Sequence record: PQ462667.1
Direction: 5' to 3' (one strand)
From: Escherichia phage HMD-P3
DNA: 64,000 nt
Part shown: piece by piece, positions 13,286 through 63,002 of the stretch
How positions within the stretch are numbered: position 1 is the first letter of the stretch
Layout: the number at the start of each line of letters is the position of its first letter
Position numbers and translations under genes: made by a program
The notes under the pieces: generated by a model
Database searches by the model: none
Told to the model about the DNA's origin: nothing
What the model saw: only the letters and a program-made list of their open reading frames with translations

Positions 13286-13314
13286 ATTATACAGAATTTT
13301 AAGGCTTAAAGCAA
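13286..13314 (-). promoter_or_regulatory. T5-type early promoter (TTGCTT-N17-TATAAT) with conserved leader
   Basis: Minus-strand reading: ttgctttaagccttaaaattctgtataat, then aagttcataaattaatgagagagga-ATG. Confidence 0.6.
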
Positions 13315-13331
13315 CTGAATTTTTTAATTAC

Positions 13332-13763
13332 TTACCAATCGTTAACAACGCCGGAGAACTCAGAAGCAAAAACTTTTTCAAATTTCTCTGCAATTTCAGG
13401 ATGATCTTTGCAGATCAGCTCAATACAGGCTTCTGGAGTCATCCCTTCATCTTCAGGATCACCATAGTATTTATCCCAAAGATCATCAGGAATGATATGC
13501 TCCGCCAAATCTTGGAAAGAGATTAACTGATAACGTTCTGCCTCCTCAGCGATAAGAATTTCGCACAGATCTTTATCTATATCGCTACGATAATCCGCAA
13601 TTAATAGGGCATTGCAAGCATGACATTCCCAGACCATCAAACGTTCAGAGATAGGGTTAGACTTATCCTGAACGTAAGACTGGAACAAGGTTCGGAAAGT
13701 TGCCTTAACTTGTTCAAACTTATCTGCTGCTGCGAAAACTAGAGCTTTATCAACTTTGTTCAT
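13332..13763 (-). CDS. hypothetical acidic protein
   Basis: 143-aa ORF with promoter/leader module upstream. Confidence 0.55.
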   Translation of the reverse strand: MNKVDKALVFAAADKFEQVKATFRTLFQSYVQDKSNPISERLMVWECHACNALLIADYRSDIDKDLCEILIAEEAERYQLISFQDLAEHIIPDDLWDKYYGDPEDEGMTPEACIELICKDHPEIAEKFEKVFASEFSGVVNDW

Positions 13764-13930
13764 TTTGATTCCTTCTCATCAATTTATAAAGTAATTATAC
13801 AGAAACTTAAGCATTTTAGCAAATAAAACTTTTAATTAAAATGCCTAATCCCGTGCCAATAGCAATACAAATGATTATAAGTATTGCTATCGCTTGTATG
13901 ATTCGTTTAATAATAGCCTCAGCTATATAC

Positions 13931-14521
13931 TTAGACATTTATATCACCACGTAATACAGCAGCTACATCTTCCCCTATTTGTAATACTTCGCCGGTAGTA
14001 CAATTAACTACTCTATCATAGCTAGTAAACTTACCAGACACAATATCCTCTAGTGGAACTGGAGTTTTACTCATTTCAAATGAGACATTAATATAACGTG
14101 GGTCACGTAAAGAAATAGTATGTACATGTCCGTGAATATTTAGTTTACCACGAAGTTCATTGGGGTGCAAAGGGCAGTGAGATAACCAAAACTTTTTGCC
14201 ACCTCCAGTCTGTTTACCTAGAGCCTGAATATCATCATAAACTTCCACTAAGTCCCTAATACTCAGTCCTTGACGCTCCGCATCATGATTACCCATAATC
14301 AGTTGATTAGGAACATTGTGGATAACCGACTTTAATTTGGCCAAGCCTTCACGACCTACTGCAATATCTCCTAGCAAAATAAGTTTTGTTCGCTTACCAA
14401 TATTCTTGGACAAAGTATCTAAAATATACTCATCGTGTTCTTTCATGTTCTTAAACCACGGACGGAAACGTAACGCTCCAGGGTGATCTAGGTGCAAGTC
14501 TGACCAGAATTTAACTTTCAT
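13931..14521 (-). CDS. calcineurin-like metallophosphoesterase
   Basis: Motifs SDLHLDH, GDIAVG, GNHD, GHVH. Confidence 0.7.
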   Translation of the reverse strand: MKVKFWSDLHLDHPGALRFRPWFKNMKEHDEYILDTLSKNIGKRTKLILLGDIAVGREGLAKLKSVIHNVPNQLIMGNHDAERQGLSIRDLVEVYDDIQALGKQTGGGKKFWLSHCPLHPNELRGKLNIHGHVHTISLRDPRYINVSFEMSKTPVPLEDIVSGKFTSYDRVVNCTTGEVLQIGEDVAAVLRGDINV

Positions 14522-14837
14522 TACTCTTTTCCTTATTCTGTATTAAACTATCAGCCCAAGAGGTTAACACTTTGGTTTTAAACTCCTCTGGAGTCTCTCC
14601 TTCCTTAAGGTCTACCTCATTAAGGTAGGTAGTAAGCCTTGTTTCTATCTCTATTTCAGCAGGAGAATTAAAACAAAAATTGACTGCTATTCCAGAATAT
14701 ATTACTCCGGTATCTCCTTTGACGAAAGCATTAACTAATGCCCTCCAACGAAGGGCATCAATACGCATTGCTCGTAATTCTTCTTGTACTTCTTTCATTC
14801 TATCATTCATTAAAGAATCCTCTGTACACCGCAGCAA
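14511..14837 (-). CDS. hypothetical protein
   Basis: 108-aa ORF. Confidence 0.5.
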   Translation of the reverse strand: MLRCTEDSLMNDRMKEVQEELRAMRIDALRWRALVNAFVKGDTGVIYSGIAVNFCFNSPAEIEIETRLTTYLNEVDLKEGETPEEFKTKVLTSWADSLIQNKEKSNES

Positions 14838-15685
14838 TTATTTTTATCTGTGGTAAATGTGGTGATTTTGCCCGTTTCATCATTAACTTGCGCAACCGTC
14901 AACTGCCCGTTGAAAACACCGCCAGTATCAAGATAAACACGGTTTTTATAAAGAAGTGGGTAAGGAACCCCAGTGTGTCCGTGGAACACAAAATCTACCC
15001 CCTTAACTTCTGGCACTTCTACCATGTATTTTTCTTTAAATCCTGCATAACGCTGGAAATATGGGTGTTCCTCACCATTTTTGGACAAGTAGAAGCCTAT
15101 TTCTTGGATTACATCTCGATCCCATAAATATGGTTCAACATGGTATCCCGTATGGTCATGTGGGTCTTCCTTAGCTGCTTCTACTTGCGCAATAAGATTA
15201 TCCCATACTGGGGTTTCTACTTCATTACCGCATTCTTTGTACGTAAAAGGTACACCACCATGAACAACACCAAATTTCTTACCACGATGTCTAACAGTTA
15301 GGAATACTGGCATTTTTTCAGCCATATCTTCGGCAATATTTTTAATGGTGTCTGCATCTAGTTCATTCATAGCCCACATACCACCATTATACATCCAATT
15401 AGCCCAATCTCCCACAATCATAAATTGGTCATGATTACCCCGGACACTGATAAAGCGTGGATTATATAGGAATTTGGCTAAAACTTGTAAGTTTTGTGTA
15501 CCTCGGTCAATTAAGTCACCAACACATACTACGCAATCTTTTTTGCTATTATACCCCGCTAATTTCAGCGCATCTTCTAGCAAATCGTTGCATCCATGAA
15601 TATCACCAACGAAAAACAAGTTGGCCTCATCCGGCACTACTAGAGTTTTATGTACATTGAATTCTTTTTTCATAATTATTCCCAA
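14810..15685 (-). CDS. serine/threonine protein phosphatase (PPP family, lambda-phosphatase-like)
   Basis: Motifs GDIHG, GDLIDRG, GNHD. Confidence 0.8.
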   Translation of the reverse strand: MGIIMKKEFNVHKTLVVPDEANLFFVGDIHGCNDLLEDALKLAGYNSKKDCVVCVGDLIDRGTQNLQVLAKFLYNPRFISVRGNHDQFMIVGDWANWMYNGGMWAMNELDADTIKNIAEDMAEKMPVFLTVRHRGKKFGVVHGGVPFTYKECGNEVETPVWDNLIAQVEAAKEDPHDHTGYHVEPYLWDRDVIQEIGFYLSKNGEEHPYFQRYAGFKEKYMVEVPEVKGVDFVFHGHTGVPYPLLYKNRVYLDTGGVFNGQLTVAQVNDETGKITTFTTDKNNCCGVQRIL

Positions 15686-15921
15686 ATAACAGTTAAAATA
15701 GTTGTGCCATAATCATTAGATAGTTGGAGAGTATAACCCTCTTTATAGAGGGCTTTTATAGCTTCATAACTAATTTCATCACGATTAAACTGTACAAAAG
15801 AGCCTCCAATCTCCACAGAAGAAACTATTCTCTTTTTAACATACTTATATGGTTTCTTTCTGCTATTAATAAGTGCAGCTCTATTTATCCTGGCTAAACG
15901 TTTTGCTTGTTCCGCTAACAT
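15676..15921 (-). CDS. hypothetical protein
   Basis: 81-aa ORF. Confidence 0.45.
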   Translation of the reverse strand: MLAEQAKRLARINRAALINSRKKPYKYVKKRIVSSVEIGGSFVQFNRDEISYEAIKALYKEGYTLQLSNDYGTTILTVIWE

Positions 15922-16018
15922 TTAATCCTCCAATCAATTTATATAAGTATTATACCAAAATTTTTAGCAAAAAGCAAGTAAAATAAAAGCCTGATCAGCT
16001 AAGATCAGGCTTTGTTTA

Positions 16019-16309
16019 TTAGTCCTCTGGATTATCATCCAGGAAATTTTTAATAGCTTCGTGCATAGTTTCTTTACGAAGCTGACGTCCAATCAGAATA
16101 TGATTAGCTTCTACTCGACCATTAGGTAAGCGATCCGCCAGAACTACTACAGGAACTTGGCGCACACCAAATTTCTGCATTAATTCTGTATTATCAGTCT
16201 CTTTATGGATTTCCAAATTATAGTCACTGACTACTTTATCAAATACTGGCTCAAACATTTTGCAAGGATTGCAAGTGGAACCTTTCAATAGATATACTAA
16301 TTTACTCAT
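16019..16309 (-). CDS. thioredoxin/glutaredoxin-fold redoxin-like protein
   Basis: CxxC motif (CNPC) near the N-terminus, size about 10 kDa. Confidence 0.5.
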   Translation of the reverse strand: MSKLVYLLKGSTCNPCKMFEPVFDKVVSDYNLEIHKETDNTELMQKFGVRQVPVVVLADRLPNGRVEANHILIGRQLRKETMHEAIKNFLDDNPED

Positions 16310-16733
16310 AGTTATTAATGGCCTCTAAGAAGTTTCTCATAGTTTTTACGGTTGCGGTGCTTAGATCAAGATTTACACCCAAACACTCGGTTAATGCCTC
16401 CTGATAAGGAGCCTTCAATCTGCCTTCTGGGACTTCTACCTTTTTATACTCTTTATTTTTGACCTTTTTAATCATAGTCTCTAGTACAAGAAGCGGTAAT
16501 TTAGCACCTTCAATATCAGTACCCAAAAGTTCAGTTAAAATTTTATTAAGATCAAGACGAGTTAACTTTTTGCCCTTAGACATAGATGCACCTACCTTTG
16601 TATCAATAGATTTTTCCGCTTTCTTTTCGAGCTTTTTGTACTCAGGAGAGTCATGATCACGGAGTGCAATGTTTAGCTCGTAATGTGGTATACGAAAATG
16701 TTCCGCCATTTGAGTATAGAAACGATCAGACAT
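16302..16733 (-). CDS. hypothetical protein
   Basis: 143-aa ORF. Confidence 0.5.
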   Translation of the reverse strand: MSDRFYTQMAEHFRIPHYELNIALRDHDSPEYKKLEKKAEKSIDTKVGASMSKGKKLTRLDLNKILTELLGTDIEGAKLPLLVLETMIKKVKNKEYKKVEVPEGRLKAPYQEALTECLGVNLDLSTATVKTMRNFLEAINNYE

Positions 16734-16808
16734 AATATATACCTCTCTTAACTAATTTATGTATATATTATATAATAACTAGGGCTAAAAGTCAACTACT
16801 TTTTTATC

Positions 16809-17225: not shown

Positions 17226-17304
17226 GGCTTTCTCCTATCTTTAGAAAATTATTAAAGCCCCCTTTTGCCTAAAAAGGCGGGAATATTCCCGCCTCAGTTA
17301 TTAA

Positions 17305-18371: not shown

Positions 18372-18527
18372 TTGTAACCTCCTCTAACCAGTACCATTAT
18401 ACTAATTTTGGAGGAAAATTACAATGTGTTTTTAAAGATCACTTCTGGAGCATAAAATTTTGTCGTTGTCAAGAAGAATTTTAGATAAAAGAAAAGCCAG
18501 GGTCGTTAAACCCTGGCTTAAAACTAC

Positions 18528-19127: not shown

Positions 19128-19139
19128 AGCGATCCTTGA

Positions 19140-21296: not shown

Positions 21297-21450
21297 ATTT
21301 AATCCTCTTGCCTCAATCTATGAGTATATTATACAAAAGTTTGGGCATCTAAGCAACTAAAATTTTATTATAAAAATAGCCCAGTCGCAAAAGTGCAGGC
21401 TGGGCTTTGTCATTATTTGCTTTTGCTAGTAAGTTGATTTAGCATCAATC

Positions 21451-23423: not shown

Positions 23424-23499
23424 TTCAAACCTCTCTCATCAATTTATAAACATATTATAGCAAGAAAAGAGAGGTTTAGCAAATGAATTATTTCAGAAT

Positions 23500-25506: not shown

Positions 25507-25573
25507 TTGGTTTCCCTCTCATTAATTTATATAAATATTATAACAATAAATAAGAGAGAAAGCAAATGAATTT

Positions 25574-25741
25574 TTAATAAAGTTTAGTCACTTCATAAAC
25601 TATACTACGAGATTCTTTATTACGTTGTATTAAATTAGCATATGCTTCTTCAGCTTCATTTTTAGTATTAAAGTCTATAACGTGAGAGGTATTAGCTCTG
25701 TTTGATTGGCTATACCAGATAACTACTAGGAGTTTAAACAT
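25574..25741 (-). CDS. hypothetical small protein
   Basis: Start moved to an internal Met to avoid overlap with the tRNA 3' end. Confidence 0.35.
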   Translation of the reverse strand: MFKLLVVIWYSQSNRANTSHVIDFNTKNEAEEAYANLIQRNKESRSIVYEVTKLY

Positions 25742-28700: not shown

Positions 28701-28985
28701 AAACTCTTTAGTTTACTAAGGCTATTAGCTCGGCGTAACTACAGCACCTTCGCTTCAAGCGGAAGGAACCGCGTCATCTCGCAAACCCGATACACTATTC
28801 AGTTGCCGCTGAATCTAGTGGACTAATCTAGAACTTCTCCCGAATCATAGGGATCGTGCTTTTTGGCAGCCAGTCCTAGGTCGAGCTAATACCTTAGTGA
28901 ACTATGATGAGGATTTCTCCTCATCAATTTATATAAATATTATAACAAGAAATTAAGCATCAAGCAACTGCATTTTTCTTGAAAT

Positions 28986-29438: not shown

Positions 29439-29891
29439 TTAGCTTTCCTTCTCTTCACTTTATAAGATATATTATACAGAGAATTAAGCAGAATAGCAAA
29501 TGAATTTTTAATAAATTTACTTATTGTGTAGGCCACCTGGAGGCTACCAACCCCACGGCTGACAAAGAAGTTTGCGAGACCTCTCTTAAATGCCAGAATA
29601 GACCCGCCGATCTATCGGAACCTACATAATAAGTAAACTTTATAGTGTCATTCTAGACAGGACTCGAACCTGTTATCACTTGTGCGGACTTACGAGAACC
29701 ATTCTTTCACTCGAATCGAACGAGCTTCTGCCCTCGCCAAGCTGGTTTCCCCATCAACCACGCTAGAATGTTTGATTATTTTCAGTGCAAGAGTCCGAGT
29801 CTTGGACACGACCGCTTCGCAAGTACATAGGCAGCTTATCATGAGTCAGCACTTCCGAATTGCTAGCCCCGTGTTCTGCACTGAAATTTTG

Positions 29892-30730: not shown

Positions 30731-30806
30731 TGGACGACCGCATGAGATTTGAACTCACATAAAAAGGATTTGCAATCCTTCGCCTAAGCCATTCAGCCAA
30801 CGGTCG
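30731..30806 (-). tRNA. tRNA-Cys (GCA)
   Basis: Anticodon arm aagga-ttGCAaa-tcctt; discriminator U as in tRNA-Cys. Confidence 0.7.
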
Positions 30807-30875
30807 ATTTATCTTGTTCTGCCATGTTGCTTCTCCAGTTCAATTTATGTAATTATTATACAGAACTTTTGTAAA

Positions 30876-31163
30876 CTAAGCAACTACATTTTTTAAGAAT
30901 TTGATGCCTTTCTTTTTCTTCTTATATTTCCACGTTAAGGGATTCTGTCGATTATGAACGCTTGAGATCTTCGTCTCATCAAAGTTCTTCAATATCATGT
31001 AATCACAAGATAGTTGTTCTAGTGGAATGTGATCACCGTCAAAAGCATATACATAAGGCTGTTGACTAGCACGATAATGATAGACTTTGTTAATTCTACG
31101 TTTCAGCGACTTATCCGCGCAGTAAATAAAGAAATTTTCAGGATGCATCAGCAGCTCCTTCAA
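30876..31163 (-). CDS. hypothetical protein
   Basis: 95-aa ORF. Confidence 0.45.
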   Translation of the reverse strand: MKELLMHPENFFIYCADKSLKRRINKVYHYRASQQPYVYAFDGDHIPLEQLSCDYMILKNFDETKISSVHNRQNPLTWKYKKKKKGIKFLKNVVA

Positions 31164-32036: not shown

Positions 32037-32225
32037 ATATTTGAATGAAAAGTAAGTCGGTTAAACTCAAGGTGGAATATTTCAGGATTTCCTGACTTTA
32101 CCCCTAAAGGCAACTCGCCTAATTACTTCTCATTCAGATATGTTTCCAAATTAGATAAATATTATATCAAGTTTTATAGTATTGGGCAAGTCAAATTTTA
32201 AAGAACTTGCCCAATGCTGTATTAG

Positions 32226-32501: not shown

Positions 32502-32591
32502 TCGTTAACTCCTTCATCAATTTATACAACTATTATACCAGAAATTTAAAGCAAAAGGCAAGTACATTTTTAAAAATTCTGTTTGGAGGAG

Positions 32592-33553: not shown

Positions 33554-33631
33554 TGGTGGCTCCCCGAGGATTCGAACCTACGTACCTTCCGGTTATGAGC
33601 CGGGTGCTCATACCATATGAGCTTGAGAACC
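33554..33631 (-). tRNA. tRNA, anticodon CAT (Met or Ile2)
   Basis: Acceptor ggttctc/gggagcc (G-U pairs), D-stem gctc/gagc, anticodon loop ctCATaa. Confidence 0.55.
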
Positions 33632-33637: not shown

Positions 33638-33726
33638 TGGCGGAAGAAGTGGGAATCGAACCCACAAGGCTATATTTCAAACCGACAGATTAGCAATCTG
33701 CTGCAATACCGTTATGCTATTCTTCC
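33638..33726 (-). tRNA. tRNA-Ser (GCT)
   Basis: Long variable arm; anticodon arm gcaga-ttGCTaa-tctgt; T-arm gtggg-ttcgatt-cccac. Confidence 0.65.
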
Positions 33727-33747
33727 GAATTTATAAGATATATTATA

Positions 33748-34317
33748 TTAGAAATTTAGCTTCATAGCAAGAAAATTTTTCAAGTTTTCGGTAGACATCT
33801 CATCCACATCTACAGGAGAAACAAATCCATTTAATTGTCTAGCAAACTTTTCACCAGCAGGATCGTTGTCCCCAACAGCTACTAATTTGAAAGGTAATAA
33901 TTTCAGTTGCTTTAATAACGCTTTTCCTGGAGAAGAACCCAGCATTGCCAGGGCTGGATAACCAGCATTATGTAATGCAACTGCCTTAAATACAGATTCA
34001 GCAATCAATACTACTTTTTCATCTCCATTGAGAGTTTCTAGTCCCCATACACACTGTGTAGTGGAGTAGGTAAAATATTTAGCCTCAAAGGGGCACTTAC
34101 CATGCCCTTTTGGAGCAGAAGGATTATACGTCTGATAGCCCCGCAACATCCCAGAGAAGTCATACAATGGGACTGTTAGCCACCCTTCCGGGCTTAACCA
34201 GCAATGATATTTATCTGTATCAAATCCTCTAGATAAGAGGTGCTGTGTTAGCTCATCAACATTCATATTTGGTTCCTCTCTCAAATTTATAGATATATTA
34301 TACAGAGAATTTAGCAT
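33748..34317 (-). CDS. Toprim-domain-like protein (189 aa)
   Basis: VVLIAESVFKA ... LVAVGDNDPAGEKFA matches the Toprim E...DxD layout; call by motif only. Confidence 0.45.
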   Translation of the reverse strand: MLNSLYNISINLREEPNMNVDELTQHLLSRGFDTDKYHCWLSPEGWLTVPLYDFSGMLRGYQTYNPSAPKGHGKCPFEAKYFTYSTTQCVWGLETLNGDEKVVLIAESVFKAVALHNAGYPALAMLGSSPGKALLKQLKLLPFKLVAVGDNDPAGEKFARQLNGFVSPVDVDEMSTENLKNFLAMKLNF

Positions 34318-34441
34318 TCAAGCAATCAAATTTTTTAACTTTTTAGAGGAAAATCATAGGGCACTTAAGGGTAGCAGATAAGTGGTGAGGACCAAAATTT
34401 GTGACTCCACTAAAAATCCGGGGGCAATTTTTAAAGACCCC

Positions 34442-37340: not shown

Positions 37341-37844
37341 TTTAAGTATTTTTAAGAACTCTCGTAAAAACTCTTAAAAATACAGACGATACCGGGAGAG
37401 TCATAAGTCTCACTCATTAAGTATTTCAAGACAAAATACGGTAACGTCTACTATTTTCCAGTTTAAGTCAGGGTGACTTAGTGGTTATGTCCTGCGGTAT
37501 ATTGAGGACTCGGTTAGGCTCGGGGTCATGACTTCCCGCCTTTTGCTGCTACTCAACAGGAGTTATCGCGAATTACCTGTGCTATTGTGCACCATTAGTG
37601 ACATCTCTCATGCCAGCATTTCCCACTTTGTGGATAGCTTGAAAAACTACTCCGATATGGAGAAAGAACTTCACTATCCTAGAATACCTTCTAAAGTTCT
37701 TCTTTAGCCTGGACATAGTTAAATCGTAATAAAACTATTCAGCAGACTGGTTGGTTAGTCTGGAACCAACTACCGCGTGGTTTAGGCAGTGCGCAACTAA
37801 CCTCGGAAGCTTTTACTTTAAAAGCATCAGTTATCCAGTTCTTA

Positions 37845-37920
37845 CCGACCATAGGATTCGAACCTACATCTTCCACCAGTTACGGCTTGATAATACCAAT
37901 TATACTAGGACGGCAGTGTT
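37845..37920 (-). tRNA. tRNA-like element, no encoded CCA, anticodon not resolved
   Basis: T-arm gtagg-ttcgaat-cctat and 6/7-bp acceptor found; anticodon arm not convincingly foldable by hand. Confidence 0.3.
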
Positions 37921-38174
37921 ACTACATAAGTGATTTCCACACCCCACTATTTATAAATTAGAGAAGAGTTTAGGGGAGAGGTTTCAGACGCCTCATTTTA
38001 CACGTTCTAGCCACTAACCGGGATTGCCGCCCCCTGTGTACTAGTTTTACAACTAACCCACCGACTCTATTCAATGCGCTTCGGTTGGGATTATGCATTC
38101 AGCGTAATCGGCTCGCTGTTCCCTAATTTATGAATATATTATACAGAATTTAAAGGCATTTAGCAAATAAATTT

Positions 38175-38618
38175 TTAATTAAATTCGCCAGCAATCTGAG
38201 CAGCAGTACCACCATCATAACGCCCAGGAAATTCTTCCTTAATCGCTTTCATCAGCATACCTTTTGTAATTCCAGGGTTTAGCTTAACTAATTCTGCAAA
38301 GTATTTACGAATCTCAGTATCAGATAACTGAGGAGGCAGATACTCCTGCAACCACTTATTTAGAATGTATTCATACTGAGCAGACTGCAAGCTATAGCTA
38401 TCAAGATCTTGACCATGAAGTTTAGCTTTCATCTGGTTAATGCTTTTTAGTTGAGCTTTGAGATAAGACACAAATTGTTCAGAAGTGATGAAATCTTTAT
38501 CAATACGCTGAAGATCCCCGATTATGGTCTGATAACTTTTAGCGACTTCTTTATCAGAACCATTAAACTTAGAATCCTGCAAAGCTCTACGCAAAACATC
38601 TAAAATATTCTCTTCCAT
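38175..38618 (-). CDS. hypothetical protein
   Basis: 147-aa ORF. Confidence 0.55.
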   Translation of the reverse strand: MEENILDVLRRALQDSKFNGSDKEVAKSYQTIIGDLQRIDKDFITSEQFVSYLKAQLKSINQMKAKLHGQDLDSYSLQSAQYEYILNKWLQEYLPPQLSDTEIRKYFAELVKLNPGITKGMLMKAIKEEFPGRYDGGTAAQIAGEFN

Positions 38619-38788: not shown

Positions 38789-38856
38789 ACTTCGCTTCCT
38801 CTCATTAATTTATGGAAGTATTATACGGAAATTTAAGTAGTTAAGCAAGTAAATTT

Positions 38857-39324
38857 TTAAGTTTTAGTGACAACAGGTTTATAGAATGTATGTCCCTTAA
38901 TTTTAGTTGTTTTCTTAAATTTCTTTGTCCAGTAAGGTTTATCTTTACCACTATGGAAGTATAGTGCTCCATGTGTAGGATCTTGTGGTAAATCAACGTA
39001 GTATATCACTCTAGCTAAATTCTTAGCGGTTTGCCAAGCCTCATCAGTTTTATCAACTTTTGGTCTCTTAGATACCCAAGAGAACTGGTTAGACTGATAT
39101 ACTACTTTACAGTAGGAATCTGGGAATTTACCGGAGTTTACACGGTTTTTAGTAACATGTGCAATCGCCGTCATTCCCTTTATGCCCTCACCACGACTTT
39201 CGAAATAGATATTTTTAGCAATGCAATCTATTTCTTTTGCATCGTGCGATGCCTGACTACTAAAGCTGAAGGTAAGGGCAGCTACTAAAAGCAAAGCTGC
39301 CTTCATTCTTTTTACTCCTGCCAA
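38857..39324 (-). CDS. secreted cell-wall hydrolase (SleB/CwlJ Hydrolase_2-like)
   Basis: Signal peptide; NIYFESRGEGIKGMTAIAHVTKNRV ... QFSW. Confidence 0.65.
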   Translation of the reverse strand: MAGVKRMKAALLLVAALTFSFSSQASHDAKEIDCIAKNIYFESRGEGIKGMTAIAHVTKNRVNSGKFPDSYCKVVYQSNQFSWVSKRPKVDKTDEAWQTAKNLARVIYYVDLPQDPTHGALYFHSGKDKPYWTKKFKKTTKIKGHTFYKPVVTKT

Positions 39325-39629: not shown

Positions 39630-40071
39630 AATAGCCTCGTTTCATCAATTTAAAAATATATTATACATATAATTTAGTAGATTAGCAAATACATTTTTAA
39701 ATTGTGAAACTAGTAAACCGATAAACAGCCTAGAGGCGCCACAGGCCATACCTTATGAGCCATGTACCTTTGATCTAGGGTTTTAATCATCAACGAATAC
39801 TTTGCATCTTTTAGCTTTAGAAGTTTAGAAGTTTGAGTTCTTTAAACTTTTCAGCTTTCATACTTAAATGTTGATCTTTGAAGTTGTGTCGGTAATATCA
39901 ACGACGCTTTGTTTTTACGTGTCAGCTTAAAAGGCTGGTGTAATAAACATAATCTCCAATAGATTATACTTTATAGTATGGTCAGCGGTCCTATTTAACC
40001 TCGTATTTCAACCGCTGCTGCGAGGTAAGATGCTTGGGCTTTCGTCTACCGATTTACTAGCTTTTAAATTA

Positions 40072-40946: not shown

Positions 40947-41016
40947 ATTTGTTTTCCTTTTATTGTTTTCTCAAATTTATGAATATATTATACAGAATTT
41001 TGGAGCCGGAAGCAAA

Positions 41017-41718
41017 TCAAATTTTCATTTTTTCGATCATAGCTGCAACACAATAGCTCTCAACTAAGGCATCAAATGCAGGATCATGCTTAACCGGATA
41101 AATCCCATAACGAATAGTGTCCATCTTCTCCATTTTAGCTATTGCCCAGCTAATACCTTCGGTCTCTAGAGCTTTATAACTGTATCCAGCTTGCATCCAG
41201 AGATTACGAAGAGATCGAACATTGCCCAAATTCCAGAATTTCCACGGAACTACTTCTTCATTGGTTCCAGCATGGAACGTGTTTGCAGAGTAGATAGTCA
41301 TATCAAACTCTGGGCCATTGCCATAATACAAAGCATTTTCGCCTAGAGCCAACTCCATAATATTTTTAGCCATAGAGAAGGCAGCATAGTTTGAGCCAAG
41401 TTTATTAGTGCAATGATGTTTACCATTTTGGAAGGCAATCAGTTTTGGATTACGCTCGTTCATAGCTTCCATAATGTGGATAGCAGACGGGCTATTTTTA
41501 GCTTGATCCATCCAGAATGCTAGAGTAGATGCTGTAACTTTGGCACCAGAATTAAGTTGATCTTGCACATCCAAAGTAACAAATACTAGATCAGGGTCTT
41601 TATCAATCCCATGCATAGCTACAAAAGCGAAAGAAGGCATTGCGATATGAGTAGTACCACAATCTCCTGGAGTTCCTAGAGATTCAATATCTAGCATACC
41701 AAATGGTTTTACTTTCAT
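41017..41718 (-). CDS. putative DEDD-family 3'-5' exonuclease
   Basis: N-terminal MLDIESLG (Exo I D-x-E). Confidence 0.45.
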   Translation of the reverse strand: MKVKPFGMLDIESLGTPGDCGTTHIAMPSFAFVAMHGIDKDPDLVFVTLDVQDQLNSGAKVTASTLAFWMDQAKNSPSAIHIMEAMNERNPKLIAFQNGKHHCTNKLGSNYAAFSMAKNIMELALGENALYYGNGPEFDMTIYSANTFHAGTNEEVVPWKFWNLGNVRSLRNLWMQAGYSYKALETEGISWAIAKMEKMDTIRYGIYPVKHDPAFDALVESYCVAAMIEKMKI

Positions 41719-42525: not shown

Positions 42526-42608
42526 TATTTGTTTTCCTTTTTGTTTATCAATTTATGAAGTATATTATACGAGAATTTGAAGCGTTTAGCAAATGAATTT
42601 TTTAAAAA

Positions 42609-42887
42609 TTATCTACCAACCATCTTAGCTTGTTCGGCATCTGAGACATATTGATACGCCCCTTTATTATACGCTGGAGCAGTACACATTTTCTTACGCT
42701 CAATCTCTTCTTGAGCTTTTCTTTCGCGTTCAGCTAACTCTTCGTCCAGATAAACTAAACGTTGCTCTGGAGGAGGTGGAAGACGTGTTTCTGGCTCACC
42801 AATATTAGCCTTTCTTATTTGACGAGGTGATTGTGCACGTTTTCTCAATGGCTTAAATCCTAATGAATTTGAGTTATAAATCCGCAT
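42609..42887 (-). CDS. hypothetical protein
   Basis: 92-aa ORF. Confidence 0.45.
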   Translation of the reverse strand: MRIYNSNSLGFKPLRKRAQSPRQIRKANIGEPETRLPPPPEQRLVYLDEELAERERKAQEEIERKKMCTAPAYNKGAYQYVSDAEQAKMVGR

Positions 42888-42963
42888 AAAGCCCTCCTCA
42901 CTTTCAATATGAATATTATACTAAATTAGAGGGCTTTAAGCAAGTGAATTTTTAATTTATTTA

Positions 42964-43440
42964 TTACATCTCAGCCATTTCAGCTTCAGTAATAACTGTA
43001 TTACACAATGCATCTACAGCTTCATTACCACTAATACCAGAATGTCCTTTGACCTTAATAAAGGTAGGGTTAGTGTTATGAAAGTTGATATACTGCTGTG
43101 TTAATTTAAATGCTTCCTGCCAAAGTTCTAGATTAAGAGGAACTTCACCATCTGCTTTCTTCCATCCTTTCCTTTGCCAAGAAAACATCCAACTTTCCAT
43201 GCCATTTTTGCAATAAGCAGAGTCAGTATAGATAGCAATTGGTCTATTATCTTTTTTAACAGACCAACGTAGAGCTTCTACAATAGCTGTGAGTTCCATC
43301 TCATTATTTGTAGTTTTAGGATTATAACCAGATTTAGAACCTAAACGATCGTCGTTATCATCATAGACAATAAAACCCCAAGCACCTGGACCTGGATTAG
43401 ACTTACAAGCACCATCTGTGTAAATGTGGAAAACGCTCAC
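42964..43440 (-). CDS. rnh: ribonuclease H
   Basis: IYTDGAC...TNNEMEL...YTDS...GHSG RNase HI motifs. Confidence 0.85.
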   Translation of the reverse strand: MSVFHIYTDGACKSNPGPGAWGFIVYDDNDDRLGSKSGYNPKTTNNEMELTAIVEALRWSVKKDNRPIAIYTDSAYCKNGMESWMFSWQRKGWKKADGEVPLNLELWQEAFKLTQQYINFHNTNPTFIKVKGHSGISGNEAVDALCNTVITEAEMAEM

Positions 43441-43985
43441 TTATTAAGTTCCTCTACTGGTGGGTAATAGTTGGTATAGAAATCTTCTATAACTGCTTCG
43501 CTACCATGAAGTGTTTTTCTTAGTTCATTAGCCTTTATGACCGCACTTTCTAGATCTAAGTAGTCAAAAACACCCCCGTAAATATTTTTACCATTATTAT
43601 CAATTACCTGTACTTGCCATTTCTGTAGTTGTTTGTTCCAGTGTACACCTAGATATCCAGATTTACTCGATGCGGTACAATTTCTATTATTAGACTGGCT
43701 TGTAGCTTCTCTTAGATTTATCCACCTATTATCTGACCTAATTCTATTTTTGTGGTCTATTAAATCAGGTATTGATCCTGTCATGTATAGAAAGGCTAAC
43801 CTATGTGCTAAATAATCTATTTTATCTATCTTAATAGTTATATAGCCATCTTTTCTTAGGTATCCAGCGGGCGAACCTGCTTTTCCTCCCCTACCACGAC
43901 TCACCTTATTAGTAAATATACCAGTATCTGGATCATAGATTAGTATTTCTTTTAATCTTTCTTGGCTAGGTAGCTTTTTACTCAT
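43437..43985 (-). CDS. HNH homing endonuclease
   Basis: YLAHRLAF...DHKNRIRSDNRWINLR...QSNNRN. Confidence 0.65.
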   Translation of the reverse strand: MSKKLPSQERLKEILIYDPDTGIFTNKVSRGRGGKAGSPAGYLRKDGYITIKIDKIDYLAHRLAFLYMTGSIPDLIDHKNRIRSDNRWINLREATSQSNNRNCTASSKSGYLGVHWNKQLQKWQVQVIDNNGKNIYGGVFDYLDLESAVIKANELRKTLHGSEAVIEDFYTNYYPPVEELNK

Positions 43986-44361
43986 CTAACCATCCTATGT
44001 CTATACTAAGTAGTGCTTTTATTCCTGTAATACCTGTACCATAAGTATTATATCGAATAGCACTTCTGCTCTTTACTTCAAGTATATTTTCATGCTCTGT
44101 ATTTTCTAGAATTTCTGTAGATATACCTAAATATCCTAATTGATCTTCCTCGTCCCAACCCATATCTTCTAGAAGATTTAGACGTAACTCTACCTTCTCA
44201 TCTCCATTTCCTACAGAGTAGTGGTCTTCTAAAGTCCTGAATTTAGAAGTGATAGAATCTAGTATTAATAATACCTGTTCCTTAGTAATAGTTTCTTTAT
44301 CACCCTGTAAGTAATTGGAGTAATTCAGAAGGGCTTGTTCTAATTCAATTTCTTTACTCAT
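43978..44361 (-). CDS. hypothetical acidic protein
   Basis: 127-aa ORF. Confidence 0.5.
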   Translation of the reverse strand: MSKEIELEQALLNYSNYLQGDKETITKEQVLLILDSITSKFRTLEDHYSVGNGDEKVELRLNLLEDMGWDEEDQLGYLGISTEILENTEHENILEVKSRSAIRYNTYGTGITGIKALLSIDIGWLDE

Positions 44362-44374
44362 TTTATTATCCTTT

Positions 44375-44434
44375 TGTACTTATTGAGTATATTATATTTG
44401 AAATTGTACTCAATAAGCGAGTACAATTTCAAAT
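44375..44434. promoter_or_regulatory. nested inverted repeats overlapping a promoter -10 region
   Basis: 16-bp perfect IR atttgaaattgtactc / gagtacaatttcaaat (about 44395-44434) plus 11-bp IR cttattgagta / tactcaataag (about 44379-44417); terminator-like hairpin agccccgaagggct at about 44441. Confidence 0.5.
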
Positions 44435-46975: not shown

Positions 46976-47006
46976 TGATTTTCCTCTTTCTCACTATTTC
47001 AGGAAT

Positions 47007-47035
47007 ATTATAGCAAATCTGGTAGAGATTAGCAA
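47007..47035 (-). promoter_or_regulatory. T5-type promoter (TTGCTA-N17-TATAAT) for nrdB
   Basis: Minus-strand reading: ttgctaatctctaccagatttgctataat. Confidence 0.55.
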
Positions 47036-47045
47036 GTAAAATTTC

Positions 47046-47075
47046 AAAGAAAAAGGAGACCCGAAGATCTCCTTG
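47046..47075. terminator. hairpin with flanking A- and T-runs between nrdA and nrdB
   Basis: aaaaaggagacccgaagatctccttgttttt. Confidence 0.5.
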
Positions 47076-49412: not shown

Positions 49413-49562
49413 TTGGCTTTCCTTTTTATAGTTATCAGGATTTAAGGAATATTCTACTTTATTATCGGTCATTAGGCAAATAAAATTTTCTGATAGAAAA
49501 GGCCCGAGTATTTTCATACCCAGGCCCTATATATTACCAGTCTAGCTTTTTAGCTTATTCAA

Positions 49563-50541: not shown

Positions 50542-50605
50542 TCCTATAGTGTACTTCGCTAACAGAGGATCAACAAAAAGATCTTGTTTATCAACTTACA
50601 AATAT

Positions 50606-50634
50606 ATTATACCAATATATACAGTAAAAAGCAA
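50606..50634 (-). promoter_or_regulatory. T5-type promoter (TTGCTT-N17-TATAAT) for phoH
   Basis: Minus-strand reading: ttgctttttactgtatatattggtataat. Confidence 0.55.
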
Positions 50635-50826
50635 CTACAATTTTAAATAAGCCTATGATATTGCATTTAAATAAAAAATTTGCTTGCTTTTAACGTGAGA
50701 TGTGTGATACTAGATAATCATTTTATATCGCGTGCACGAGTGCGTGATTATACAATTTTTAATAGAGATTGGCAAATAAAATTTTTTGACTCAGATCATG
50801 TTACAGAACTTTATAGTAAAATATTG

Positions 50827-52759: not shown

Positions 52760-52801
52760 GCTAATCAGCCGGGTTGCTAGTCGACCTGGCTTTTATTTTA
52801 T

Positions 52802-52830
52802 TTGCTTTCAGCCAAAAATTTATATATAAT
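52802..52830 (+). promoter_or_regulatory. T5-type promoter (TTGCTT-N17-TATAAT) with conserved leader
   Basis: tttgctttcagccaaaaatttatatataat, then agatttataaatttgagaggag-ATG. Confidence 0.6.
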
Positions 52831-52858
52831 AGATTTATAAATTTGAGAGGAGAAAGAT

Positions 52859-54929: not shown

Positions 54930-54931
54930 AT

Positions 54932-55360: not shown

Positions 55361-55369
55361 GGAGGCAGA

Positions 55370-55759: not shown

Positions 55760-55785
55760 TGATTTTTATTAGCTGAACTCTGATT

Positions 55786-55812: not shown

Positions 55813-55853
55813 TATGCTCAAGGACACTGATAGCACCTTTGGGAAAATTTTAC

Positions 55854-55882
55854 TTGCAGGATGCCCAAAATCTTGATATAAT
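55854..55882 (+). promoter_or_regulatory. T5-type promoter (TTGCAG-N17-TATAAT) heading a 650-nt leader
   Basis: ttgcaggatgcccaaaatcttgatataat. Confidence 0.5.
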
Positions 55883-56515
55883 ATTTATATTGAATTGAGA
55901 GACATTAGTAAAAATTGATTTTGCTAATTTTTCTTGTTTACAATCCGCGATACGGAACAGTTAGGCTGCCCCATTAAGGGTTGTTTTAACTGTTACGTGT
56001 TAGTTTTTAAACAAATAATTAATAGAATACTTAGCGATCTACATCCCGTAGGAACCCTGGTAAGGCCTCGAAGCAACCTAGTGTGAGGTGGTTGTGAAGT
56101 GAGACGGGAAGAGTGAAAAACTCTGAGAAGTGATGACGTAAGGTATACTGCATCTAGTATGAGCTAGTATATGAAGCATTAGGTGAGCAAATCTGGCTTA
56201 GCGGCCATCCTCAAGGATTTGTGCGGTATAGTGAAGCGGCAGTGTAGCGTGAAAGGGGAAGTTGCCACCCCCCTTCAGTATTTGCGATTAATTGTTGAGA
56301 AATTGACAGTAACAGTTGTTCTATTCTTTCTGAATAGTCCTAAAGAAAACTTATTTCATTTCCAACACAGGAGTATTGTTGTGTTCTCAATCCTACAAGG
56401 TCATGCAGGATTTCATCGCGATTTAGCCACAGGCAATTGGCGGGAAGTTAAAGCAGAAAACTATCTTTTTGCTAAAAGATTTTCCTCAAAGCATCCTGAA
56501 GGTAAACCAGCTTCA

Positions 56516-59170: not shown

Positions 59171-59387
59171 AAAATGGGAAACAAGGAAGTTCCCAGTAAA
59201 AGAACGTAAAGTTCCTGTTTACGACACTTCGGAAAAGCTATGTAGGGTGGTACCGCATAGATTAGTTGGCATCCCTAACATATCCGAGTGGTTACTTAAA
59301 CAACGGAAAACAAACGTGTCTCTTCGCATCGGCTTTGAGTTAGATAAAGTCTATGCTGAACTTGCTTCTTTGCTCAAGGAATCGTAA
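59145..59387 (+). CDS. hypothetical protein
   Basis: 80-aa ORF. Confidence 0.4.
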   Translation: MLEMTVKNKKWETRKFPVKERKVPVYDTSEKLCRVVPHRLVGIPNISEWLLKQRKTNVSLRIGFELDKVYAELASLLKES

Positions 59388-59395
59388 AAATTTAT

Positions 59396-59424
59396 TTGCT
59401 TTCAGGAAAATTTTTCTGTATAAT
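59396..59424 (+). promoter_or_regulatory. T5-type promoter (TTGCTT-N17-TATAAT) with conserved leader
   Basis: ttgctttcaggaaaatttttctgtataat, then agatttataaatttgagagaggag. Confidence 0.6.
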
Positions 59425-59455
59425 AGATTTATAAATTTGAGAGAGGAGTTTAAAT

Positions 59456-60383: not shown

Positions 60384-60489
60384 CAATTACAGAAAAATTT
60401 CAGTTGCTTAATCCTATAATTCTTGATATAATATTCTCATAGTTTGAAAGAACTATTCTGTTTAATTCTTAATTAAGGAAATATAAAAT

Positions 60490-60900
60490 ATGACTACTCC
60501 AACTCAGTGGACTGATGAACTGTTCGAAAAAATGTCTTCCGAATACGTTGCTCGTATGGAGCAATTCCCAGAGGATGAACGTCCGGGTGTTAGCATGGAA
60601 ATTGTTAGCGAAATTGCCCAGGAAAATGGTGTAACTCCGAACGGTTTTCGTATGAAGCTGACTAAAGCAGGTTTGTATATCAAGAAAGCTGCTGGCTCTG
60701 CTTCTAAATCTAGCGCATCTACTGGAGAAAAAGCTTCTGGTGGTTCTCGTACTTCCAAAGCCCAGGCGCATGCAGATCTTCGTTCAGCGTTCTCTGATGC
60801 TGGCCTAGCACCAGATTTTCTGGATGATGCAATTATCGACAAACTGACCGGTAAAGCGGCTGCTCATCTGGCAGAAGCAATCCGAGCTATCACTAAGTAA
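60490..60900 (+). CDS. hypothetical protein
   Basis: 136-aa ORF; promoter ttgctt...tataat at about 60404-60432; E. coli-like codon usage. Confidence 0.55.
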   Translation: MTTPTQWTDELFEKMSSEYVARMEQFPEDERPGVSMEIVSEIAQENGVTPNGFRMKLTKAGLYIKKAAGSASKSSASTGEKASGGSRTSKAQAHADLRSAFSDAGLAPDFLDDAIIDKLTGKAAAHLAEAIRAITK

Positions 60901-60936
60901 TTTTTAGATAAATCCACCAACAAAAGGAACACAGTT

Positions 60937-61233
60937 ATGACCAAAGCTGAAATTATCGCACAATGTGAAAAATTTGGTGAGTTTTATCTTCATTACGAGA
61001 AACTTCGTCAGAAAGGAACCACGTACCTTCAGGGTACGATGGAATTTGATCCAGCCCAAGATAAATATCTGGCTGAGCGTATTAAACGTGAACGTATTCG
61101 TAAAGCGAAAGATGATGAAATCCTTGTCTTCTCTCGTACTAATGATAGCTTCCGTTTTATTCCTGTCGAGAAAGTCCGTCGTGTGACTAGCCTCCAATCA
61201 GAGTTAGATCGTGCTTCTCCAGTAGGCCGATAA
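60937..61233 (+). CDS. hypothetical protein
   Basis: 98-aa ORF; RBS aaaaggaaca. Confidence 0.5.
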   Translation: MTKAEIIAQCEKFGEFYLHYEKLRQKGTTYLQGTMEFDPAQDKYLAERIKRERIRKAKDDEILVFSRTNDSFRFIPVEKVRRVTSLQSELDRASPVGR

Positions 61234-61243
61234 GAAACCAATT

Positions 61244-61266
61244 AGCCCCTATATGGGGCTTTTTGT
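61244..61266 (+). terminator. rho-independent terminator
   Basis: agcccc-tatat-ggggct followed by ttttt. Confidence 0.65.
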
Positions 61267-61283
61267 GTATTTGGGATATGTAA

Positions 61284-61592
61284 ATGAGCGAACAGGTAAA
61301 TCAAAACTATGAAGGACACGTTGATGACCAGTCCATCATACTTTGGGAGAAGGAGGGAGAACAAGTAAGATTAACAGTATCTGAATTTCGTGGGAATCTA
61401 TACATGGGTATTCGTTACTGGCTTCTTGATATTAATGATGAATGGTTTCCAACGAAATCTGGCTTCTCTTTTCCTTACACCCTAGAAACAACATCACAGC
61501 TTTTCTATGCGTTTACACAGATTCTTAGCGAATCTGAGGTTTTACATGAAGTACAGAAACGAGCTGAAGAACTCAAAGCCAAGAATGCCTAG
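61284..61592 (+). CDS. hypothetical protein
   Basis: 102-aa ORF; terminator hairpin gccaagaa-tgcctag-ttcttggc-ttttt overlaps the stop. Confidence 0.5.
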   Translation: MSEQVNQNYEGHVDDQSIILWEKEGEQVRLTVSEFRGNLYMGIRYWLLDINDEWFPTKSGFSFPYTLETTSQLFYAFTQILSESEVLHEVQKRAEELKAKNA

Positions 61593-61619
61593 TTCTTGGC
61601 TTTTTCTTTATAAATGTAT

Positions 61620-61648
61620 TTGCTTTCAACTCAGTTTTGTTATATAAT
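61620..61648 (+). promoter_or_regulatory. T5-type promoter (TTGCTT-N17-TATAAT) with conserved leader
   Basis: ttgctttcaactcagttttgttatataat, then atttatataaattgatgagaggatc. Confidence 0.6.
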
Positions 61649-61659
61649 ATTTATATAAA

Positions 61660-61866
61660 TTGATGAGAGGATCAATTATGAACATAACACTTCCAAAAAT
61701 TCAAGCAAAGTTAAACCTAGTATCAACTGCTAGAAATAACTATCTAGATAACTTTGGTGGAATCAACGATAAAGCGTACAAAGATGCGTGGTTGAAAGAA
61801 GCGCAAGAGTTAGCCGATCTCACTACTCAGTATAGTAAAGAACTACAGGTAGAAATGAATGACTAA
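61660..61866 (+). CDS. hypothetical protein
   Basis: 68-aa ORF behind the promoter/leader module. Confidence 0.5.
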   Translation: MMRGSIMNITLPKIQAKLNLVSTARNNYLDNFGGINDKAYKDAWLKEAQELADLTTQYSKELQVEMND

Positions 61867-62830
61867 TGTAAAAGACTTTATTAAACGTTGTCAAGAAGCA
61901 TATTACCAGGGAATGTCTTTAATCTCTGACGAAGAATATGATCGTCTGATTAAAAGATTTCCGTTAGAAGAAGAGATCGGGCCTAAGGGTGATATTCCAC
62001 ATCTGTATCGTATGTATTCTTTACAGAAAGTTTATTATAATCGTGGAGATAAACCTCCGTTTAACCCATTAGGTCAGGTAGAAACTGATAAGTTAGATGG
62101 TTGTGCGATTTCTCTGTTATATATTAATGGCGAATTTGTTCAAGCACTAACTCGTGGTAATGGTATTCTAGGGAACGATGTCACAAGCAACGTAAGATTG
62201 CTGAACATTCCTAAAAAGATTTCCCAAAAAGTACCTACTCAAATCACTGGTGAAGTTCTAATTACAAAAGAAGTAGAAAATAAACGTAACTTTGCCTCTG
62301 GTGCTATTAACCTCAAAGATAGTGATGATTTCGTACAGCGTATCGGAGAAGGTGGTTTAATCTTCGTTGCATACGGTATCCAGTGTTCTGGTGAATCTGT
62401 AGGTATTACAGAAACGTATTTAAAAGATATGCTTTGGCTAGAGAATGAGAACTTCTTAACAGTTGTTAATGTGCGTTCCTTCTTTAAGTGGATTCCAACG
62501 GATGGTAAAGTTGTTCGTATTAATGACAACAACAAATTCTTCCGAGAAGGCTGGACTAATAAATTTCCTCGTGGAGCATTCGCTATTAAAGAGGATGAAG
62601 AAGGTGAGATTACTACTCTTACTAAAGTTGAATGGCAGGTAGGGGCTTCTGGTAAAGTAACTCCAGTTGGTTATTTCGAACCGGTAATTATTGATGATGC
62701 TACAATTGTTAAGGCGACTCTTAATAACGTTGATTATATTAACTCTCTCGATCTAGAGATCGGTTGCCAGATTCGAGTAATTCGTGCTGGTGGTGTAATC
62801 CCGTGCATAGTAGAGCGAGTATACGATTAA
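61859..62830 (+). CDS. ligA: NAD-dependent DNA ligase, adenylation-domain subunit
   Basis: KxDG adenylation motif in ETDKLDGCAISLLY. Confidence 0.8.
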   Translation: MTNVKDFIKRCQEAYYQGMSLISDEEYDRLIKRFPLEEEIGPKGDIPHLYRMYSLQKVYYNRGDKPPFNPLGQVETDKLDGCAISLLYINGEFVQALTRGNGILGNDVTSNVRLLNIPKKISQKVPTQITGEVLITKEVENKRNFASGAINLKDSDDFVQRIGEGGLIFVAYGIQCSGESVGITETYLKDMLWLENENFLTVVNVRSFFKWIPTDGKVVRINDNNKFFREGWTNKFPRGAFAIKEDEEGEITTLTKVEWQVGASGKVTPVGYFEPVIIDDATIVKATLNNVDYINSLDLEIGCQIRVIRAGGVIPCIVERVYD

Positions 62831-62973
62831 TACATAACCCTTTGCTACCCATCTACCATATCGGAATTATAAAGTGGTTATTGACATTTTCGCCGCTTAG
62901 GTATATACTATTATCATTCAGTTGAGGGATAGAAAGTTATGGCGAGGGTAAGCAAAGTTAGTTAAAATTGTAG

Positions 62974-63002
62974 TTGCTAAATGCTTAAATACTTGCTATA
63001 AT
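62974..63002 (+). promoter_or_regulatory. T5-type promoter (TTGCTA-N17-TATAAT) for ligB
   Basis: ttgctaaatgcttaaatacttgctataat, then atttatataaattgataaggaag; a second TTGACA-N17-TATACT lies at about 62880-62908. Confidence 0.55.

Follow-up and report, generated by a model that had tools for sequence, protein, structure and literature searches.

A reiterated early promoter module with a conserved start-site core in the T5-like Escherichia phage HMD-P3

In the 64,000-nucleotide stretch of DNA from Escherichia phage HMD-P3 (PQ462667.1) that was analysed here, and which is called the window below, an early promoter module occurs in about 31 copies between positions 13,260 and 63,030, each lying on the strand of the gene that it precedes. 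Such modules are already known as the early promoters of T5-like phages, having been described and annotated in phage T5, and we put at about 85% the probability that the modules are host sigma-70-dependent promoters of the early class of a T5-like phage, provided with an escape-type start and with a Shine-Dalgarno sequence (SD). A reading made earlier from the sequence alone had reported a reiterated early promoter followed by a conserved leader, in more than 20 copies and on both strands, and the number of copies is indeed far above that found in shuffled sequences. The long leader of this sequence-only reading turns out to combine the classic initial transcribed sequence (ITS) of T5 with an SD.

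The window comes from a T5-like phage: a BLAST map shows it to be collinear with T5 (NC_005859), with 87-96% nucleotide identity over long blocks, and hundreds of T5-like phages of Salmonella and Escherichia are 96-98% identical to a 12-kb piece of it. It contains 22 tRNA genes, at 24.7-37.3 kb. Minus-strand copies of the module span 13.3-50.8 kb and plus-strand copies 52.8-63.0 kb, in agreement with gene orientation and with the GC-skew flip near 50-52 kb. No early-module copy was found at positions 1-13,000 (the pre-early, first-step-transfer and terminal repeat region), which fits the different, pre-early promoter type annotated there in T5 (P-H22: TTGACA-N17-TAAAAT). When at most one mismatch was allowed, TTGCWW-N17-TATAAT was matched 30 times in the window, whereas shuffles that preserve dinucleotide composition gave 4.5 +/- 2.3 matches (at most 10); 24 copies have no mismatch. 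The 19-mer leader, with up to three mismatches, was matched 10 times for 0.06 expected. With a position weight matrix (PWM) of the upstream half (-45 to -7), 28 sites scored above the best of 30 shuffles, all of them within 13.3-63.0 kb and all on the gene-sense strand. A generic sigma-70 scan (TTGACA/TATAAT) revealed no enrichment, with 45 sites in the window and 51.5 in shuffles; such a scan misses the -35 element of the module because TTGCTT agrees with TTGACA at only three of six positions. What is reiterated is a specific module, and not general promoter-likeness.

Copies are named here by the coordinate at which their -35 element starts; 29 were tabulated in register, and two more, 32189 and 49479, were found later. 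All 22 copies given by the sequence-only reading exist. Its plus-strand coordinates are the exact -35 starts; on the minus strand the copies are real, but the numbers mark the low-coordinate (ATG) end of the module. Its list was also incomplete, since it lacked 15977, 21356, 32189, 33770, 50634, 50775 and 55854, as well as the weak copies 18424 and 49479.

Alignment of the 29 copies, which that reading had suggested, yields an information profile with conserved promoter and start blocks at -45 to -37, -35, -10, -6, +1 to +7 and +11 to +17. The first of them is an UP-like, A/T-rich block (AAAAATTTA), with A in 25-27 of the 29 copies at -45 to -42. The -35 consensus is TTGCTW, and its positions 1-5 (TTGCT, -35 to -31) are matched in 26-28 of the copies; the 17-bp spacer shows moderate conservation of AA at -21/-20, of T at -16 and of G at -13, and the -10 element (TATAAT, -12 to -7) is present in 29/29. 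The discriminator is loosely A/T-rich from -5 to -1, with A at -6 in 26/29 and T at -3 in 21/29, and is a loose consensus only, the exact word ATATT being found in just 4/29 copies. From +1 to +7 the sequence is ATAAATT, each position being supported by 20-25 of the 29 copies, and a moderately conserved, purine-rich GA(T)GAGAGG follows at +8 to +17. Purines make up 81% of +8 to +20 and 53% of +61 to +160 on the same strand. The leader was said to provide the SD, and a purine-rich SD of the GAGAGG type does follow the core. Its conservation needs qualifying: the full 19-mer is recognizable in only 10 copies, while the shorter ATAAATT is present at six or more of seven positions in 21/29 tabulated copies. 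The spacing of 5-8 nucleotides (nt) that had been given between TATAAT and the leader does not hold, as the 19-mer as written starts about 3 nt after the -10 element and the core starts 6-7 nt after it. The ATG of 15 core-bearing copies is found at +22 to +27, and that of three copies with longer leaders at +31, +35 and +52. Copies 42943, 44420, 47035 and 60404 have a diverged leader. We also considered that the ATG inside TTGATGAG could start a mini open reading frame (ORF); direct reading of the sequence led us to reject this, as its frame relative to the gene is inconsistent and it has no SD.

The leader is made of two elements, a start-site core that is fixed to +1 and an SD that moves with the ATG, and the two usually abut. 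The core is intact (7/7) on the RNA-gene promoters 28967, 33770 and 38166. In copies 41015 and 42592 it stays at +1, and a separate SD (AAGGAAAA) lies beside an ATG at +35 or +31. The part of the leader that goes beyond an SD, ATAAATTGA, is fixed to the start site and not to the ATG, and it remains at +1 when the SD is 10-30 nt further downstream. With most early leaders measuring no more than 21-26 nt, core and SD come to lie side by side and give the impression of a single long block.

The extra length had been ascribed to a translational operator or to an RNA-processing site, and neither proposal agrees well with a core that is fixed to +1, that is found on RNA-gene promoters and that comes with no shared structure. 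According to the first, the leader would act at the RNA level as a translational enhancer or operator, as a landing pad for S1 or as a repressor site of the RegA type. The leader is AU-rich, largely unstructured and directly 5' of the SD, and its length is rather uniform in the 15 copies mentioned above. In phage T4, the RegA translational operators and the RegB GGAG cleavage sites are short AU-rich or GGAG sequences near the starts of early mRNAs, and the module resembles them in having a short AU-rich, GGAG-containing sequence near many early mRNA starts. However, the core is anchored here to the transcription start and not to the AUG, and it also occurs on tRNA and noncoding RNA promoters, being perfect on the three that serve tRNAs or stable RNAs only; long-leader copies keep it at +1, 10-30 nt away from SD and ATG; in the comparison with T5 given below, +1 to +9 is constrained (4.5% divergence) and the SD-proximal +10 to +20 is not (12.8%); and promoterless genes internal to operons have ordinary SDs without the core. 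We therefore regard a translational role as quite improbable. The second proposal, that the leader is cut by RNase E or by a RegB-like GGAG nuclease, either on read-through transcripts or so as to set mRNA half-life, appears to us very improbable indeed. AU-rich, single-stranded sequence followed by GGAG-type motifs would suit such an enzyme, and many modules have no upstream terminator, so that they are also transcribed internally from upstream units. But the core forms the extreme 5' end of the primary transcripts, where there is nothing upstream to remove, and what is conserved follows the geometry of the promoter, the core lying at a constant 6-7 nt from the -10 element, with no conserved structure; no dedicated nuclease was identified, although no systematic search for one was made. 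As to structure, the leaders have no RNA fold in common (mean z-score of the minimum free energy, MFE, -0.55), strong individual hairpins occur in only two copies, 28967 and 55854, and Rfam at the gathering threshold detected tRNAs and no other RNA family across the window.

Comparison with T5 early promoters, which the sequence-only reading had advised, provides further evidence. The T5 RefSeq record (NC_005859) contains 75-bp 'promoter' features, extending from about -49 to +26 and in many cases named after the original mapping work, and the annotated sequences hold the same module, including the leader and its ATAAATT(T)GA start block. All copies in the window except two weak ones (44420 and 49479) map to such a feature, and most of those mapped are identical to it at 65-75 of 75 positions; the classic promoters P-N25, P-N26, P-K28a, P-H207, P-D/E33 and P15a are among the orthologs in the best-match table. 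The nearest paralogs are identical at only about 45-55 of 75 positions, and such values are seen for 13822 and 44420, which have no scored ortholog. HMD-P3 and T5 share the UP block, TTGCTW, the 17-bp spacer, TATAAT, the A/T-rich discriminator and the ATAAATT start, and likewise the downstream genes, tRNAs and stable RNAs; they differ only by point substitutions and by a few changes in gene content, for example the deletion of T5.070 behind 30883 and an extra HNH endonuclease gene near 43.5-44.4 kb. Over 22 window/T5 ortholog pairs, divergence is 16% in the upstream flank, 3.6% in the UP block, 0.8% in the -35 element, 6.4% in the spacer, 0% in the -10 element, 7.6% in the discriminator, 4.5% at +1 to +9 and 12.8% at +10 to +20. 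The most conserved transcribed segment is +1 to +9, and these rates indicate that the start-site core is under purifying selection and that the SD-bearing part is under no special constraint. The definition of T5 early promoters is credited to Gentz & Bujard (1985, J Bacteriol 164:70) and Ksenzenko et al., and alignments of T5 promoters of the early and the late class, in which the UP element and an ATATT discriminator are indicated, were published by Klimuk et al. (2020, Fig. S5; PMC7472727). In T5, P15A has been validated as an early promoter by primer extension (PMC7472727); early timing and a mapped start are known for P15A and Ppol (PMC7472727) and for N25 (PMC12464699). A literature search for papers on the T5 transcriptome or on the mapping of transcription start sites (TSS) found nothing relevant.

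As to the role of the core, we favour an explanation that operates at the level of the DNA and of RNA polymerase. Each module would be a very strong sigma-70 promoter, at which the A of ATAAATT, 7 nt beyond the -10 element, would be the first base transcribed, and the first 10-20 transcribed nt would be part of the promoter, as an escape element: the initial ATAAATT(G)A and the purine tract that follows would act on the polymerase and let it leave a promoter to which it is very tightly bound. The SD (GAGAGG, GGAG or AAGGA), placed 6-10 nt before the ATG, would then serve translation separately. The model is P-N25, which ranks with the most studied promoters in bacteria. RNA polymerase is held extremely tightly there, and escape is the rate-limiting step (PMC12464699). 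According to the account of Kammerer et al. (1986) given in that paper, when the 'anti' sequence is put in place of the N25 ITS from +3 to +20, full-length RNA falls about 10-fold and the half-life of escape rises from about 3 to about 45 min; escape is most efficient with the native ITS, which is AT-rich and purine-rich. The base compositions of +1 to +11 and of -11 to -1 given in the same source (PMC12464699) place +1 at the A of ATAAATTTGAG. With respect to the P-N25 ITS, or downstream sequence region (DSR), as it appears in these sources (Kammerer et al. 1986, EMBO J 5:2995; Hsu and co-workers, PMC12464699), copy 59396 is identical from +1 to +20, and the other copies share the first 7-9 nt and a purine-rich continuation. 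The published ITS experiments concern one promoter, whereas here the core is common to the whole early class, to tRNA promoters and to the family. From this likeness we infer that the core of every copy would have the same role in escape.

Several points weigh against this explanation. The role in escape has been tested by experiment for P-N25 alone, and the TSSs were assigned by orthology and spacing and are hence predicted for this phage. The core is matched at five or fewer of seven positions in 8 of the 29 tabulated copies (18424, 42943, 44420, 47035, 50634, 50775, 55854 and 60404), and 32189 and 49479 likewise have no good core; since the core-poor copies, apart from 44420 and 49479, for which there is no T5 feature, are still annotated or orthologous promoters, the core is not obligatory. 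Finally, an escape model that depends on composition alone, A/T-rich and then purine-rich, does not by itself explain why more than 20 paralogs, and phages of different host genera, retain exactly ATAAATT, so that there may be a sequence-specific reader of ATAAATT, be it a contact with RNA polymerase or a phage factor.

This last consideration leads to another possibility, namely that the block from -6 to +10 (the discriminator and ATAAATTGA) is a class-specific operator or recognition mark, read by a phage factor that times the early class. It would serve in shut-off or modulation at the early-to-late switch and may add to the effect on escape; the D5 DNA-binding protein, RNA polymerase bound or modified by gpT5.026, or another protein would be candidate readers. 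The exact word recurs in 21 paralogs and in Demerecviridae of different host genera. It is found on mRNA, tRNA and noncoding RNA promoters and is absent from T5 pre-early and late promoters: P-H22 (pre-early), P-G25 and P-J5 (late) have neither TTGCTW nor ATAAATT, and the complete module is present at the T5 early llp promoter, at a distance of 50 kb. In addition, the T5 RefSeq note for D5 describes it as involved in shut-off of early expression, and gpT5.026 is reported to affect the interaction of polymerase with the discriminator and the early/late balance (PMC7472727). However, the effect of the N25 ITS is obtained in vitro with pure host polymerase, so that no phage factor is needed for it (PMC12464699); binding by the candidate readers is putative; the exact ATATT discriminator is present in only the few copies counted above; and about half of the sites in Vibrio phage D11 have a C at +2. 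On balance we hold such an operator to be unlikely, and retain the escape element as the explanation of the core.

A fourth proposal concerns the origin of the similarity between copies. The modules, of about 75 bp, could be mainly recombination substrates that shuffle gene cassettes and are kept similar by gene conversion, like the promoter-early-stem-loop (PeSL) cassettes reportedly described by Arbiol et al. in 2010 in T4-type phages. The two systems have in common many near-identical early promoters scattered among small, variable early genes, and some breakpoints of homology between the window and T5 do fall at module positions -48, -4, +12 and +15, with two just outside (-55 and +31). 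But the module has no shared stem-loop, T4 early promoters have a consensus of their own, and the enrichment of breakpoints is not significant (4 of 40 in module footprints versus 1.9 expected, P = 0.12). Moreover, orthologs (65-75/75) are far closer than paralogs (about 45-55/75), which argues against recent homogenization. A mobile regulatory cassette or gene conversion was rejected on these two grounds, and we give shuffling hardly any credit.

The module and its core are not limited to close relatives of T5. In the relatives, an early region of about 40 kb was scanned in each case (22 kb in Providencia), the D2 proteins being from 66% to 37% identical; sites were picked by the upstream half only, and a core was counted when it had at most one mismatch and lay 5-8 nt after the -10 element, for a background of about 0.01. 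Cores were found at 6 of 14 sites in the Klebsiella phage, 10/17 in Serratia, 3/7 in Providencia, 3/6 in Aeromonas, 3/5 in Vibrio phi3 and 3/15 in Vibrio D11. A model-free search for TTG-N3-N17-TATAAT gave 14 sites in Vibrio Cilsick, 17 in D11, 10 in phi3 and 7 in Aeromonas Akh-2, where about one was expected, and the starts at these sites read A-T/C-A-A-A, with C at +2 in about half of those of D11. The PWM hinted that the start consensus had drifted throughout the lineage of Vibrio D11; this was not retained, as the drift is only partial: ATAAA persists in the model-free scan and in Cilsick, a second Vibrio lineage. Going by these scans, the module is a trait of the whole family Demerecviridae, including its Vibrio and Aeromonas phages. 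T5-like sequence is also carried by GenBank records labelled 'Campylobacter phage' and 'Listeria phage'; two of the former, C13 and A148, encode D2 proteins with 98.7% and 93.2% identity to that of the window, and the host labels of these records are probably wrong.

Two copies had been singled out by the sequence-only reading for having no ORF behind them, which should drive noncoding or tRNA-precursor transcripts, and this is what their T5 orthologs do. The first (28967, then given as 28905) corresponds to T5 P13b, which is followed in the RefSeq annotation by the stable RNA 'RNA2H' and then by tRNA-Ala and tRNA-Leu; the second (38166, then given as 38120) corresponds to P16-17, followed by the 719-nt stable 'RNAX' and then by tRNA-Arg. 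No ORF of 20 or more amino acids (aa) is present behind 28967. Behind 38166 there is one of 42 aa, which lacks an SD and whose ATG is not conserved in Klebsiella phage Roth39, in which the surrounding noncoding sequence is conserved. At least three further copies drive tRNAs: 33770 (tRNA-Ser(GCU)), 32189 (tRNA-Tyr) and 30883 (an ORF remnant, then tRNA-Cys). At 30806-30848 (-), the last of these promoters retains its SD and ATG, with a 10-codon remnant before tRNA-Cys, the T5.070 ORF being deleted. A perfect 9-bp hairpin, GATGAGGA-GAAA-TCCTCATC, is located at 28905-28926, that is at +7 to +28 of the 28967 transcript (MFE z = -4.25); it sequesters an SD-like GAGGAG and is terminator-like when read on the opposite strand. 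The Rfam tRNA model also gave two hits that ARAGORN did not report, at 33557-33631 (-), with 40.3 bits, at the position of T5 tRNA-Ile2(CAU), and at 37843-37914 (-), a weak one of 33.7 bits, a tRNA-like element inside the region equivalent to T5 RNAX.

All copies are collected in the following table, and some of them have particular surroundings. Terminator hairpins are found directly upstream of some modules (at 47053-47074, and upstream of 15977 and 52802), and the T-tract of the terminator is continuous with the A/T-rich UP block of the promoter that follows; in the T5 annotation, too, terminator and promoter features overlap. The start region of 50775 has a GC-rich, partly palindromic CACGCACTCGTGCACGCG in place of ATATT/ATAAATT, and T5 (p53776) and Klebsiella phage Roth39 also have a GC-rich block at this position; the copy stands in tandem about 140 bp upstream of 50634, within the divergent region in which the genes change strand. 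A long untranslated leader (55890-56180, +) separates the promoter 55854 from the gene of a replication-origin-binding protein, and a strong hairpin spans +8 to +45 (z = -3.9); in T5 the corresponding gap measures about 470 nt. Adjoining the weak 44420 promoter, 43435-44387 has no collinear counterpart in T5, and within it 43480-43964 is 66% identical to the region of the T5 HNH homing endonuclease hegE, which suggests an extra homing-endonuclease insertion beside 44420.

Table. Copies of the early promoter module and related promoters in the window. Spans extend from -45 to +20; copy, start of the -35 element; TSS, predicted +1; n, missed by the sequence-only reading.
Feature	Span	Strand	Copy	TSS	Remarks
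Early module	13260..13324	-		13279	Ortholog of T5 promoter 16245-16319, 75/75 identical
Early module	13768..13832	-		13787	Core 9/9; corresponds by position to T5 P-F30
Early module	15923..15987	-	15977	15942	T5 p18550 ortholog; T-tract of upstream terminator doubles as UP block; n
Weak/atypical promoter, TTGTAA-N17-TATAAT	18372..18436	-	18424		No ATAAATT core; T5 p20998 ortholog; upstream of holin gene; n
Early module	21302..21366	-	21356	21321	ATAGATTGA; T5 p24443 ortholog; n
Early module	23428..23492	-		23447	Core 9/9; T5 p26722 ortholog
Early module	25511..25575	-	25565	25530	Ortholog of RefSeq feature named P11 in T5
Early module, no ORF behind	28913..28977	-	28967	28932	Core 9/9; T5 P13b ortholog; drives RNA2H-equivalent RNA and tRNA-Ala/Leu
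Early module	29444..29508	-	29499	29463	ATAAAGTGA; T5 P13a ortholog
Early module	30829..30893	-	30883	30848	Core 9/9; T5 P14b ortholog; 10-codon ORF remnant, then tRNA-Cys and tRNA-Asn
Early-type promoter, TTGCCC-N17-TATAAT	32135..32199	-	32189		Start CTAATTTGG; T5 P14a ortholog; drives tRNA-Tyr; n
Early module, 18-bp spacer	32506..32570	-	32561	32525	Core 9/9; T5 P15c ortholog (74/75)
Early module driving tRNA-Ser(GCU)	33715..33779	-	33770		tRNA body from about +9; core 7/7; no SD; T5 P15b ortholog; n
Early module	34271..34335	-	34325	34290	T5 P15a ortholog
Early module, no ORF behind	38112..38176	-	38166	38131	Core 7/7; T5 P16-17 ortholog; drives RNAX-equivalent region, then tRNA-Arg
Early module	38794..38858	-	38848	38813	T5 P-D/E33 ortholog
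Early module	39634..39698	-		39653	TTAAATTGA; T5 p43067 ortholog
Early module, long leader	40961..41025	-	41015		Core at +1; separate SD (AAAGGAAAA); ATG +35; T5 p44393 ortholog
Early module, long leader	42537..42601	-	42592		Core 9/9 at +1; separate SD; ATG +31; T5 P-H207 ortholog (75/75)
Early promoter, diverged start	42887..42951	-	42943		ATATTGAAAGTGAGGAGGG; T5 p46337 ortholog
Weak copy, TCGCTT, 18-bp spacer, diverged leader	44364..44428	-	44420		Upstream of thymidylate synthase side of region
Early promoter, diverged leader	46980..47044	-	47035		Directly downstream of terminator hairpin (47074-47053); T5 p50061 ortholog
Weak early-type promoter, TTGCCT-N17-TAGAAT	49425..49489	-	49479		No core; n
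Early module, long leader	50580..50644	-	50634		GTAAGTTGA; T5 p53638 ortholog (75/75); n
Promoter, early-type upstream half, GC-rich discriminator and start	50722..50786	-	50775		No ATAAATT; T5 p53776 ortholog; n
Early module	52792..52856	+	52802	52837	T5 p55708 ortholog
Early promoter (TTGCAG), long untranslated leader	55845..55909	+	55854		Start TTGAATTGAGAGAC; T5 p58999 ortholog; n
T5 P-N25 ortholog	59386..59450	+	59396		+1 to +20 (ATAAATTTGAGAGAGGAGTT) identical to T5; upstream of D2 gene
T5 P-N26 ortholog	60394..60458	+	60404		Start ATAGTTTGA; long leader, ATG +52
Early module	61610..61674	+		61655	Core 9/9; T5 p65284 ortholog (ligA)
T5 P-K28a ortholog (75/75)	62964..63028	+	62974	63009	Core 9/9; upstream of ligB

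For the annotation of the phage, the outcome is that about 31 transcription units, at least five of which are tRNA or stable-RNA units, are located in a T5-like genome that had been unannotated. To what the literature says of these promoters we add that the core is kept on RNA-gene promoters, that the pattern of divergence points to purifying selection on it, and that it is common to the Demerecviridae of Enterobacterales, Aeromonas and Vibrio. These additions sharpen the question of how T5 times its early class.

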